A stretch of 53,159 bases of DNA from a virus (IMGVR_UViG_2711768002_000013); one strand, 5' to 3'. Positions 48,129 to 50,250 are shown, counted from the first letter of the stretch. The notes: generated by a model from the sequence alone, not told the origin. Translations and numbers: made by a program.

Positions 48129-49499
48129 CTATGATATCCCTGAAATGTCCTCTTCAAGCTCTTTTACTGATTTCGCAATTTTAAATTTAAATTTTCTCTC
48201 TATTTCACTATTGCTAAGTTTTTTTTCATTCTCTTTCCCTATCCACATAGAAACAATTTCTCGTTTCTGAGATATATGTAGATTGTCAAAGTTAGGTATG
48301 TATTTAAAAGTCTCCGCTCTACCCCTGCGGAGTTCATAGAAAGTTTTAATCAAAGACTTTGGTTTTATTTCTGATGAAAGGCCGAATCGGCGGATAAGAT
48401 TATTGATCGTATGATTAACAGCTCGAAGTTGAGCTGTTGACGTTATTTGTGAGAAGTACGATACCCATCCCAATCGTTTACCTTCAAACACACATCCCGT
48501 AATTCTAAGATTTAGTTTCCACTGACAATATGCAACAGCTCGTTCTTTATCGCGCTTATTTTTAGCTTGTAGTAGAGCGTGTCTATATGCAGTAAAAATT
48601 TTTGCTAAGGATGACTCAAATCTAAGAATGCTCTCATGTTTTATCAATAATTCTCGATTTTTTATGTGGTAGCCCAAAAAGTTGAAACTTTCATCCAAGC
48701 TGCCTACTTTGGATTTTGAGTTCTCTTCATTTAATGGATGTGGGTTTAAATTTAATGATTGAAGCTTATCAATGATATGAGAAGCTATTTTTGTTGCTTG
48801 ATATTTTGGTGTTAAAATAAGAATGTCATCAACGTATCGCATGTACCATATGTCATGCATTTTATTGATTTCATCATCGAAATTAGATAGTGATATTTCA
48901 GCTAAAATGTTTGATATCGCTAATCCCTGAGGTACTCCTCTGGTATTATTAGGGATACCTTTGCTTCCTGTGGTTCCACTTACAGTAGGCACGATTAATG
49001 ATGATGTTATTAACTGTCTAATTTCTTTTTTTCTAATTTTATTTTTTATTGCATTAATTATCAATTTATGTTCAATTGAAGGATAGAAACTTTTAAGATC
49101 TATTTTTGCATATTCAGCATATAGACTGTTGTTTAATGCTTCTTTCAATGAGTCAATTACTGTATGTGGTAGTTTTAATCTGGACTTAGGATATATTTCC
49201 GTAAGGCATTCACAGAGAGCTCTAAGAGTAATTCTGTCCCTAGCAGTTGGTATGGAAATCTGTCTGGGTGTAGAGTTAGCGCCTTTAGATATTAATTTTT
49301 CTTTATATGCTGTAAATTTGTAATTGCCAGAATTAACCTTTTCAAAAATGAAAGTGATCTCATTTTTTATTGTCAAATCAAGTTTTGATGGGCGAATCCG
49401 ATCTATGCCAATCGCTCCTGATTCTTTGATTTTTTCAGAGTATACTTTTAGAAGATTTTTTTTCGAGAATGACTTTTTAAAAATTCTGCTTGCAGTCAT
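48129..49499 (-). CDS. Reverse transcriptase (YVDD catalytic box) with C-terminal extension
   Basis: Motifs in canonical order: ISIPTARDRITLRAL, KIDLKSFYPSI, RGVPQGLAISNILAEI, YMRYVDDILIL (YVDD codons 48825..48836), FNFLGYHI; ATG 49499 is 23 nt inside the 3' end of the upstream ORF. Confidence 0.85.
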   Translation of the reverse strand: MTASRIFKKSFSKKNLLKVYSEKIKESGAIGIDRIRPSKLDLTIKNEITFIFEKVNSGNYKFTAYKEKLISKGANSTPRQISIPTARDRITLRALCECLTEIYPKSRLKLPHTVIDSLKEALNNSLYAEYAKIDLKSFYPSIEHKLIINAIKNKIRKKEIRQLITSSLIVPTVSGTTGSKGIPNNTRGVPQGLAISNILAEISLSNFDDEINKMHDIWYMRYVDDILILTPKYQATKIASHIIDKLQSLNLNPHPLNEENSKSKVGSLDESFNFLGYHIKNRELLIKHESILRFESSLAKIFTAYRHALLQAKNKRDKERAVAYCQWKLNLRITGCVFEGKRLGWVSYFSQITSTAQLRAVNHTINNLIRRFGLSSEIKPKSLIKTFYELRRGRAETFKYIPNFDNLHISQKREIVSMWIGKENEKKLSNSEIERKFKFKIAKSVKELEEDISGIS

Positions 49500-50028
49500 A
49501 GTCAATCCAAAGATATATTAATGGGAGTATATAAAGTGCGGCAGTAATAAATATTCGAAGTAATATCCATAAAATAACAATTATTTTTTCTTTTTGTGTG
49601 GGGATCCTCGTCTTAAGTCCAACTTGAGTTACCCTTGAAATTTTATCATCTATGTCACGGTGATTCTCAACCTCATTGAGCAAATTAAAATATTTTTCTT
49701 TCTGTTCAAGAGATAACTGTTGACTGGTGGTAATGTCAAAATAGAGTCGCTGTAGTGCAATATAATTCCTTCTCATGGCTATTGCTCGACCACGAAAATC
49801 TAGGTTAGATACGATCAGAGAAATACCCAGTAGAGCCACTGAAAGTATCGCCGCAACGACATCTGTATTATCTCCTAGAACCTTTGGAAATCGCAACGTT
49901 ACAATTGAAAGTACCGCACTCAATATAGCATACCAAACGAGGATAAATTGAGAGTGTTTTTCAAGCCATTCTAGTCGATGGTGCGCTTGGATACGTGCTT
50001 TATATGTAAACCAAATATTGTCATGCAT
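49477..50028 (-). CDS. Small membrane protein (2-3 predicted TM helices), putative RT partner
   Basis: 183 aa; hydrophobic segments FILVWYAILSAVLSIVTL, VVAAILSVALLGISLIVS, IIVILWILLRIFITAALYILPLIYLWI; AAGGA Shine-Dalgarno before ATG 50028; overlaps the RT start. Confidence 0.7.
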   Translation of the reverse strand: MHDNIWFTYKARIQAHHRLEWLEKHSQFILVWYAILSAVLSIVTLRFPKVLGDNTDVVAAILSVALLGISLIVSNLDFRGRAIAMRRNYIALQRLYFDITTSQQLSLEQKEKYFNLLNEVENHRDIDDKISRVTQVGLKTRIPTQKEKIIVILWILLRIFITAALYILPLIYLWIDYDCKQNF

Positions 50029-50184
50029 AAAAGATCCTTTTTAAAAGCGGAAGGGGCAGGATATATTGGAACCGTTGAACATCCTGCCCGGCAGGATCAG
50101 TGAGCATAAGCTCAACAGTAAAATATTACTGTTCATTATCAGAGCCGCCCTTGCATGCGCAAGAGGAAAAACCTGCCCCATCCC
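50029..50184 (-). ncRNA. Structured ~150-nt leader, candidate RT-associated noncoding RNA
   Basis: Four or more stem-loops: CAGTAA-N4-TTACTG, CTTGC-N4-GCAAG, ATCCTGC-CCG-GCAGGAT, and long-range GGGGCAGG (50053..50060) with CCTGCCCC (50172..50179); no ORF. Confidence 0.35.
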
Positions 50185-50190
50185 TTTGAA

Positions 50191-50219
50191 TTATTACAAT
50201 TTAATGATCTTAAAGTCAA
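50191..50219 (-). promoter_or_regulatory. sigma70-like promoter for the leader / membrane-protein / RT unit
   Basis: On the minus strand: -35 TTGACT (50219..50214), 17-nt spacer, -10 TAATAA (50196..50191); lies between the dinI-like stop and the leader. Confidence 0.45.
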
Positions 50220-50250
50220 TACAAGTGAATGGTGTCCAGAGATGATGAAC

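Follow-up and report, generated by a model that had tools for sequence, protein, structure and literature searches.

The window analysed here is a 53,159-nucleotide (nt) stretch of viral DNA (IMGVR_UViG_2711768002_000013; positions 48,129 to 50,250 are shown, counted from its first letter), and near its right-hand end a minus-strand operon encodes, in this order, a structured noncoding RNA (ncRNA), a small membrane protein of the SLATT family and a reverse transcriptase (RT). A sequence-only reading of the window had taken the operon for a defence-type RT system, retron-like or DRT/Abi-like, with a membrane effector and a structured leader, and had left open both its family and the chance that it was an uncharacterised variant. 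The outline of that reading is borne out by a UG17 RT, a SLATT_5 protein and a covarying ncRNA, and we can now go further: with high confidence we assign the locus to DRT10 (UG17, subtype A), an anti-phage system, and regard it as a natural, close allele of the model system Eco3DRT10. The system as such is already known, having been characterised genetically, biochemically and by cryo-electron microscopy (cryo-EM) in 2025-2026. A copy so close to a model system gives no support to the idea of an uncharacterised variant. Its principal parts in the window are the following.

50190..50219, minus strand: sigma70-like promoter of the ncRNA (TTGACT at 50219..50214, an 18-nt spacer with an extended TG, AATAAT at 50195..50190)
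50047..50183, minus strand: DRT10 ncRNA of about 137 nt, its ends placed by homology with the Eco3DRT10 species found by RNA immunoprecipitation sequencing (RIP-seq)
49477..50028, minus strand: SLATT_5 membrane effector of 183 residues, assigned with PADLOC, Pfam and NCBIfam
48129..49499, minus strand: UG17/DRT10 reverse transcriptase of 456 residues, assigned by PADLOC RT_UG17 and residue conservation
48389..48387, minus strand: RT residue R371
48134..48132, minus strand: RT terminal serine S456, its priming role assigned by homology

The RT open reading frame (ORF), 48129..49505 on the minus strand, encodes 458 residues from a TTG codon and 456 from the ATG at 49499, which is the RT start used by RefSeq in identical loci. 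The five RT motifs quoted in the sequence-only reading are all present in the translation in the order stated, with YVDD at residues 222-225 (48836..48825); the C-terminal extension, put there at about 130 residues, is longer, the sequence past FLGY running to about 177. The RT_UG17 profile of PADLOC matches the protein over its full length (E = 1.1e-158, 527 bits, profile positions 1-429 of 429 aligned with residues 3-458 of the 458-residue form) and leads every other PADLOC RT model by more than 120 orders of magnitude in E-value. Among the matches examined, the best 25 of 70, the second family is Drt3a (E = 3.2e-38) and no retron appears; the Drt2 and Drt9 profiles reach E = 1.2e-24 and 6.6e-20, respectively. 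No NCBIfam model claims the RT, and the four nearest all fall well under their curated cut-offs: the group II intron RT/maturase TIGR04416 (144 bits, cut-off 300), Drt3a (113 bits, cut-off 200), Drt2 (76 bits, cut-off 390) and retron_St85_RT (58 bits, cut-off 235). The family of the RT is thus UG17, and not open. In an alignment of 25 homologues (59-83% identity), YVDD, R371, K385, Y388 and S456 are invariant and the C-terminal ELE-DI motif, which forms the positioning helix, is kept; the window protein ends in ...EEDISGIS, with S456 last. Its exact sequence is present on 732 contigs.

The membrane protein is encoded by an ORF that overlaps the RT start by 23 nt and is preceded, 9 nt upstream, by the Shine-Dalgarno sequence AAGGA. 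It had been credited with two or three hydrophobic helices, and three hydrophobic stretches are found (approximately residues 25-48, 54-79 and 146-175). Its effector family is likewise clear, with matches to the RT-associated SLATT profile of PADLOC (RTasSLATT, E = 1.5e-56) and to SLATT_5 in both Pfam (100 bits, cut-off 29.5) and NCBIfam (136 bits, cut-off 60). In all 13 related loci that we compared, a SLATT homologue lies between the ncRNA and the RT.

Upstream of the SLATT gene, the noncoding leader has the architecture that had been noticed at the outset, a sigma70-like promoter followed by several stem-loops (SL) within a long-range inverted pair. The promoter-like site is unchanged in three E. 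coli alleles, and a start about 7 nt past the -10 element, at 50183, reproduces the Eco3DRT10 nucleotide numbering exactly, so that Eco3 nucleotide n corresponds to window position 50184-n. The region has no excess of promoter-like matches overall (13 seen against 10 +/- 3 expected), so the assignment of this site as the ncRNA promoter rests on position and homology, and not on the scan. The leader folds with a minimum free energy (MFE) of -57.1 kcal/mol (z = -4.76; none of 200 shuffles folds as well), and four hairpins lie within the long-range pair GGGGCAGG/CCTGCCCC (50179..50172 with 50060..50053). The elements of the RNA are listed below, where double-changed denotes pairs with changes on both sides among the homologues.

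50053..50179, minus strand: SL1, the basal stem, in which GGGGCAGG (50179..50172) pairs with CCUGCCCC (50060..50053)
50148..50165, minus strand: SL2 hairpin (CUCUUGC GCAU GCAAGGG), 7 pairs, 3 double-changed, 96.4% paired
50134..50147, minus strand: Loop A, which holds U43 and G44
50141 and 50140, minus strand: landmarks U43 and G44
50114..50133, minus strand: SL3 hairpin, AT-rich (AACAGUAA UAUU UUACUGUU), 8 pairs, 7 double-changed
50102..50113, minus strand: SL4 hairpin (GAGC UUAU GCUC), 4 pairs, 98.4% paired
50098, minus strand: landmark G86
50081..50097, minus strand: SL5 hairpin, 7 pairs, 3 double-changed, the 5' template-boundary element by the role of its homologue
50080, minus strand: landmark G104
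50079..50078, minus strand: linker U105-U106 in Eco3 numbering
50077..50069, minus strand: template A-B, 5'-CAACGGUUC-3' (Eco3 C107-C115)
50065..50068, minus strand: realignment segment A', CAAU (Eco3 C116-U119), with C116 at 50068

Built on the RNA of the window and of two E. coli alleles, and restricted to the five clear helices, a covariance model finds one strong match (E = 1e-12 to 1e-25) in each of the 13 related loci, which come from Photorhabdus, Buttiauxella, Pseudomonas and Stutzerimonas and have RTs 58-70% identical to ours; every match is on the coding strand and just upstream of SLATT. It finds nothing in seven alphaproteobacterial UG17 loci (31-34% RT identity), in agreement with the report that ncRNA models work only within subtypes (10.64898/2026.04.29.721553). 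Across the 13 homologous loci, 23 of the 37 pairs are changed on both sides and 95.8% of the alignment cells are standard pairs, a fraction that is partly due to the alignment having been fitted to the model. When the 3' partners are slid by 1-3 columns as a control, 46-57% of the cells are paired and 2-6 pairs are double-changed, and the covariation score is reached by none of 500 shuffles. The compensatory changes in the ncRNA are real. Helix 1, the SL1 stem with three extra pairs (50183..50181 with 50051..50049), encloses the entire RNA and has 11 pairs, 9 of them double-changed and 95.5% paired overall; its GC content of 75%, like the 25% of SL3, is the value reported for Eco3. Single-stranded and boundary elements are conserved in sequence as well: Loop A, GCGGCUCUGAUAAUGA, is nearly invariant across 16 homologues, the AUCC/GGAU base of SL5 is invariant in 16 sequences, and G86 and G104, which flank SL5, correspond to the G-G Hoogsteen pair contacted by R371. 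Two features suggested by the sequence were discarded, namely the MFE pairs running through the template loop (columns 40-46 with 112-118), which have no support and were dropped from the model, and a 46-residue ORF inside the leader, whose conservation fails outside E. coli. Rfam 15 is without a family for the DRT10 ncRNA; a search of 47900..50700 with E up to 1 returned no retron, group II intron or matching RNA family, its only hits being a partial IS009 inside tfa and a chance bantam match.

The published work allows these parts to be interpreted. UG17 RTs were found in 2022 to be tightly linked to SLATT proteins and were predicted to be defensive (PMC9226505). Tang et al. (October 2025) named the system DRT10, showed that three E. 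coli homologues defend against phages, and found that defence depends on the active site of the RT, on SLATT and on an ncRNA whose gene lies upstream of SLATT (PMC12632851). The RT product is kilobase-long, single-stranded tandem-repeat DNA that is covalently attached to the RT through a C-terminal priming residue (S456 in the 456-residue Eco3DRT10 protein, Y444 in Eco1DRT10), and an A-B-A' pattern in the loop past stem-loop 5 programs telomerase-like repeat addition (PMC12632851). Sanchez-Nieto et al. (2026) distinguished three UG17 subtypes, showed that the ncRNA is independently expressed, and reported that DRT10 is toxic without ExoI/SbcB and is triggered by a phage protein resembling single-stranded-DNA-binding protein (SSB) (10.64898/2026.04.29.721553). 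The cryo-EM structures of Ramirez et al. (2026) contain two RTs per ncRNA, with the template window set by two anchors, SL5 with R371-G104 on one side and, as the 3' anchor, SL1 contacted by K385 and Y388 on the other; Loop A of Eco3DRT10 is bound by the second RT monomer and yields only an abortive complementary DNA (cDNA) of about 10 nt (10.64898/2026.06.29.735271). DRT10 is accordingly defined as a UG17 RT, a SLATT protein and an ncRNA, all three being required for defence (PMC12632851, 10.64898/2026.04.29.721553). In the window we find an RT of the UG17 clade in UG/Abi class 2, an overlapping SLATT_5 gene as in subtype A, a structured upstream ncRNA, the A-B-A' loop, and the priming, catalytic and anchoring residues.

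Within DRT10, the likeness to Eco3DRT10 extends to details. The order ncRNA-SLATT-RT is the same, SLATT overlaps the RT in both, and both RTs have 456 residues and end in S456. The Eco3 RT record OKX54664 carries two spurious N-terminal residues, so that its S458 is S456 (10.64898/2026.06.29.735271), and these two residues parallel the TTG/ATG pair at 49505/49499 in the window. Both ncRNAs have 137 nt and five stems, and all numbered landmarks coincide: with nucleotide 1 at 50183, the right base is present at U43, G44, G86, G104, U105-U106, C107, C116 and A120-U123. A 9-nt template is followed by CAAU in each, and a tyrosine recombinase adjoins the system, as it does beside two of the three E. 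coli systems, where it is dispensable for defence (Tang et al. 2025, PMC12632851). The differences lie in the template, where the window has U110C and A112G, giving a predicted repeat of GAACCGTTG instead of the published GAATCATTG, and where the A-A' homology amounts to 3 nt plus a G-U wobble. A bridge between the two is provided by the sister allele of E. coli CE10, which differs from the window at 11 of 456 RT residues (97.6% identity) and 4 of 183 SLATT residues (97.8%) and carries the exact Eco3 template and realignment segment, CAAUGAUUC-CAAU. Our A-B-A' script, applied to the CE10 allele, returns the published Eco3DRT10 repeat GAATCATTG, the complement of CAAUGAUUC. In addition, a near-identical E. 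coli RT/SLATT pair, WP_077903186.1, is part of the published DRT10 dataset.

The loop that follows SL5 in the window is GUUCAACGGUUCCAAUAUAU, which by homology comprises the UU linker, the template A-B and the realignment segment A', with the A-B-A' pattern reading CAA-CGGUUC-CAA at 50077..50066. In Eco3DRT10, C116 templates the first, protein-linked dG (PMC12632851, 10.64898/2026.06.29.735271). Of 16 homologous ncRNAs, 14 have a (U)CAA...(U)CAA repeat at this place in the loop, its period ranging over 9-11 nt. Relative to the Eco3-type template CAAUGAUUC, the window template CAACGGUUC differs by U to C at position 110 and A to G at position 112; neither position is among the five Eco3 substitutions that abolish defence, all of which disrupt the first three bases of A or A' (PMC12632851). 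Since the register is kept in these homologues and the substitutions lie outside the inactivating set, we predict that the window allele makes protein-primed tandem repeats of 5'-GAACCGTTG-3'. We compared a 60-mer that takes in SL5, the template loop and the 3' strand of SL1: of 188 E. coli loci, 82 have exactly the window version and 34 have the CE10 version, the remaining loci differing elsewhere in the 60-mer. The window version is the commoner of the two counted in E. coli, and it differs from the one studied in the laboratory.

Taking these observations together with the work on homologues, we propose the following model for the operon. A constitutive promoter would produce the ncRNA of about 137 nt (50183..50047), in which SL1 encloses SL2, Loop A, SL3, SL4, SL5 and Loop B, and the SLATT-RT messenger would probably arise by read-through or processing of the ncRNA transcript. 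By analogy with Eco3DRT10, two RT monomers would bind one ncRNA, and the monomer at Loop B would prime DNA from the hydroxyl of its own C-terminal S456, opposite C116. It would copy from C115 back to C107 and stop there, the boundary being set by SL5, which R371 would anchor two nucleotides upstream. The nascent 3' end GTTG would then melt and re-pair with the CAAU of A' through three Watson-Crick pairs and a G-U wobble, and cycling of these steps would yield kilobase-long, single-stranded (GAACCGTTG)n covalently attached to the RT. SLATT, we infer, acts as the effector, such that a change in the amount or state of the DNA at the time of infection opens or activates it and leads to abortive infection; until then, the repeat DNA would be kept in check by host ExoI/SbcB, to be perturbed by phage SSB-like proteins. 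The steps from dimer to repeat, the defence phenotype, the need for all three parts and the dependence on SbcB are carried over from near-identical or related homologues in the literature, and are expected to apply here.

How the DNA acts on SLATT is the step on which the published groups disagree. For Eco3, Tang et al. observed less cDNA after infection and proposed that the DNA restrains SLATT (PMC12632851), whereas for the system E3659 Sanchez-Nieto et al. observed more first-strand cDNA after infection (10.64898/2026.04.29.721553). The lethality seen without ExoI depends on RT, ncRNA and SLATT (10.64898/2026.04.29.721553). Because excess RT product together with SLATT is toxic in that sbcB experiment, we lean, at slightly better than an even chance, toward activation by DNA accumulation or by an altered DNA state, with release from inhibition a lesser though substantial prospect; the direct Eco3 data point the opposite way.

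Apart from this disagreement, several points weigh against our reading or parts of it. The allele relationship to Eco3DRT10 is drawn from the landmarks and from the CE10 allele. The surrounding prophage looks mosaic and has a frameshifted tail-fibre gene, which has no bearing on the integrity of the cassette. The template substitutions cut the A-A' identity from 4 nt to 3 nt plus a wobble, and they also create a competing 4-nt repeat, GUUC...GUUC, with an 8-nt period; the product of the window allele could thus be less uniform than that of Eco3.

This last point leads to the alternative that survives best, although we consider it improbable: a DRT10 system that copies in the GUUC...GUUC register (Eco3 104-107 and 112-115) and makes 8-nt (CGTTGAAC)n or mixed 8- and 9-nt units. 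The window and MS6192 alleles share GUUC-AACG-GUUC, which is a longer exact repeat than CAA...CAA, and in Eco1DRT10 cryptic re-annealing sites do degrade repeat precision (PMC12632851, 10.64898/2026.06.29.735271). An 8-nt register, however, needs U106, U105 and G104 to be copied, past the template boundary, which the SL5-R371 anchor and the 2-nt linker hold at C107 in Eco3; SL5, G86, G104, the UU linker and R371 are all conserved in the window. Moreover, Eco3 has UUC...UUC at the same 8-nt spacing and yet makes precise 9-mers, and it is the CAA...CAA register that the homologues conserve.

What might be the relevance of the two template versions? They differ at 2 of 9 template bases, compared with a divergence of about 2.7% elsewhere in the cassette, and we regard it as possible, if doubtful, that this natural polymorphism is non-neutral. 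If the effector, host ExoI or SSB, or phage counter-defences read the repeat sequence, template switching would diversify the immune signal, and the DNA made by the window allele, which realigns through a wobble and has a competing 8-nt register, would be functionally distinct and less uniform.

A second alternative sees in the cassette a silent passenger: the prophage would be decaying, and the operon, although undamaged in sequence, would be unexpressed or unprotective in its native host. The cassette and its surroundings have the following features.

48096..50225, no strand assigned: whole cassette, a low-GC insertion of about 2.13 kb between the tfa terminator hairpin and the 3' end of dinI
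47432..48016: tfa, tail-fibre assembly gene
50251..50499: DinI-like gene
50560..51657, minus strand: tyrosine integrase, with dusA next to it

In 58 complete E. coli genomes tfa and dinI are only about 116 nt apart, and alignment with one cassette-free genome places the junctions at about 48095/48096 and 50225/50226. Inside the cassette the GC content is 30-36%, against 46-62% in the tail genes. The right junction lies outside the promoter, so the insert brings its own. Of 5426 complete E. coli genomes, 188 (about 3.5%) contain the leader region, always on the chromosome, and a 2.56-kb query that runs from tfa to the integrase gives the same result. In MS6192 and CE10 the dinI-ncRNA-SLATT-RT-tfa block lies beside prfC with no adjacent integrase. 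The cassette therefore occupies more than one chromosomal site and is a discrete, self-promoted insertion in the tfa-dinI slot of lambdoid prophages. Decay of the host element is suggested by its mosaic make-up, two integrases and a frameshifted tail-fibre gene, and dinI is frameshifted in one sister locus; against this, all ORFs of the locus, its promoter and its functional residues are intact, the cassette is kept at 95-100% identity in the 188 genomes and at several sites, and homologues with their native flanks are constitutively active in K-12 (PMC12632851, 10.64898/2026.04.29.721553). We consider a silent passenger very improbable.

Less probable still is that the leader serves only as a cis-acting 5' untranslated region, an attenuator or stability element of the SLATT-RT messenger, and that the RT uses another template. 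The 3' end placed for the ncRNA is only about 18 nt from the SLATT start codon, and a consensus scan found no canonical intrinsic terminator after the basal stem; nor did it find a separate minus-strand promoter for SLATT, so that the messenger must traverse the leader. In the near-identical Eco3, however, this region is the RT-bound 137-nt RNA identified by RIP-seq (PMC12632851), Eco3 RNA, RT and deoxynucleotides suffice for repeat synthesis in vitro, and cryo-EM shows two RTs bound to the RNA; in another UG17-A system the ncRNA complements in trans (10.64898/2026.04.29.721553). The covariation, too, keeps a closed multi-helix fold with the A-B-A' loop, and not a terminator/antiterminator pair. 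A dual role as untranslated region and ncRNA is compatible with the DRT10 interpretation.

That the RT belongs to a retron, as the sequence-only reading had thought possible, or to another non-DRT10 element (a group II intron, a diversity-generating retroelement, AbiA/K/P2, DRT3 or DRT9), with SLATT as a retron-type effector, has a negligible chance of being right: the labels 'retron-type reverse transcriptase' and 'maturase-related protein' on database records for some cluster members, the ncRNA-effector-RT order that resembles some retrons, and the group II intron RTs that are the closest solved structures by sequence (E = 4e-14 in a local copy of the PDB, in which the search returned no DRT10 entry) are set against alternative RT models that all fall far under their cut-offs, a region in which Rfam detects no retron msr and no intron RNA, a single RT gene, the absence of template/variable-type repeats in 46500..52000 (the only direct repeats being three weak 34-nt copies of 65-71% identity), and a template that is a 9-nt loop segment, neither an msd hairpin nor the ACAC of DRT3 nor the poly-U tract of DRT9.

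Among characterised systems, the UG17-A DRT10 of Escherichia sp. E3659 (10.64898/2026.04.29.721553) shares the subtype and gene order of the window, an ncRNA expressed independently upstream of SLATT, an essential basal stem and the requirement for all three parts, and it shows tandem-repeat cDNA, dependence on SbcB and a phage SSB-like trigger. It differs in belonging to another ncRNA lineage, of 143 nt with six stem-loops, a template ACUUAUUACU and a 7-nt AGTAATA repeat, and in that its cDNA is reported to rise on infection, whereas that of Eco3 falls. The RT-SLATT locus of uropathogenic E. coli H120 (Rousset et al. 2021), as far as it is described in the papers that cite it (PMC9226505, 10.64898/2026.04.29.721553), is likewise a prophage-borne UG17 RT with SLATT and makes sbcB essential, implying a toxic RT product that acts via SLATT; it is of subtype UG17-B, with the RT first and SLATT after a gap of about 200 bp, opposite to the order in the window.

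More distant parallels are found in the class 2 UG systems DRT9 (UG28) and DRT2 (UG2), which also make cDNA iteratively on an ncRNA template with a stem-loop boundary upstream of it. DRT9 is in addition protein-primed from the RT and has an ncRNA fold resembling that of DRT10, but its template is a poly-U tract that is copied into poly-dA, its priming residue is a tyrosine, it assembles into hexamers and SLATT is not an obligatory partner; in DRT2, synthesis is primed from the 3' end of the RNA, and rolling-circle copying builds a gene. Telomerase (TERT with telomerase RNA) shares with DRT10 a short internal template followed by an alignment segment, melt-and-realign repeat addition, and a structured template-boundary element held by a conserved arginine. 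DRT10 is not a member of the telomerases: it is protein-primed instead of chromosome-end primed, is without the TEN, TRBD and IFD-TRAP elements, has a 2:1 RT:RNA stoichiometry and functions in phage defence. As a class, DRT10 is notable as a compact, protein-primed, telomerase-like enzyme serving phage defence, a discovery that has already been published. In annotation, the name DRT10 should replace the labels 'retron-type RT', 'maturase-related protein' and 'reverse transcriptase domain-containing protein' at loci beside SLATT, and the RNA of about 137 nt, currently unannotated, should be added.

Two neighbours of the operon were considered as members of the system and rejected: dinI is linked to it only in E. 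coli prophage loci and is a frameshifted pseudogene in one, and the neighbouring recombinase is dispensable (Tang et al., PMC12632851). Just upstream of the DinI-like gene lie two perfect LexA boxes (CTGT-N8-ACAG) at 50514-50529 and 50542-50557, the only zero-mismatch matches in the window; they overlap a promoter-like site of dinI (TTGACA-18-AAAAAT). Between dinI and the DRT10 promoter a consensus scan found no terminator-like site. SOS-induced read-through from the dinI promoter into the cassette is conceivable, and we give it, separately from the template polymorphism, an outside chance; it would put the cassette partly under SOS control. At the other edge, directly after the tfa stop codon, a hairpin GCCGCAGCA...TGCTGCGG (48023-48075) is shared by cassette-free prophages; it probably terminates tfa and forms the left boundary of the variable cargo slot. 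The 3' part of tfa also contains the partial IS009 match (47900-47973, plus strand, 73 bits, E = 8e-16), which is cut by the edge of the search; IS009 is a candidate E. coli small RNA.

The remainder of the window is prophage sequence, probably of mixed descent. Its left end (1-1236, minus strand) encodes a Rac/lambda-type integrase (Arm-DNA-bind_2 and Phage_integrase), followed by recT, recE/exoVIII, sieB, a cI-like repressor and a trkG-like gene. In none of the complete E. coli genomes does a single region contain 80% of the right-hand 25 kb, and NZ_CP015085 shares only 38.5-50 kb of the window, at 99% only over 47.3-50 kb. The two integrases and scattered matches suggest that the prophage is mosaic or recombinant, or that two prophages have rearranged with each other. 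The side tail-fibre gene (44647-47432, plus strand) is split into two overlapping frames, 44647..46008 (phage_tail_N) and 45969..47432, and 49 nt that NZ_CP015085 has are absent from the window at about 45561, within an Ala/Ser-rich repeat of this gene; the gene is either a frameshifted pseudogene or a repeat assembly error. In the early region, a 363-residue ORF (11828-12919, plus strand) has a weak match to a HEPN/RES N-terminal domain (E = 2e-4, under the Pfam cut-off) and may be another prophage defence or toxin gene. Finally, a related prophage of NZ_CP015085 (E. coli O25b:H4) at zur/dusA carries the same DRT10 cassette and, at its opposite end (9300-9872, not in window numbering), encodes a Panacea-domain protein, and may thus carry more than one accessory defence or toxin module.

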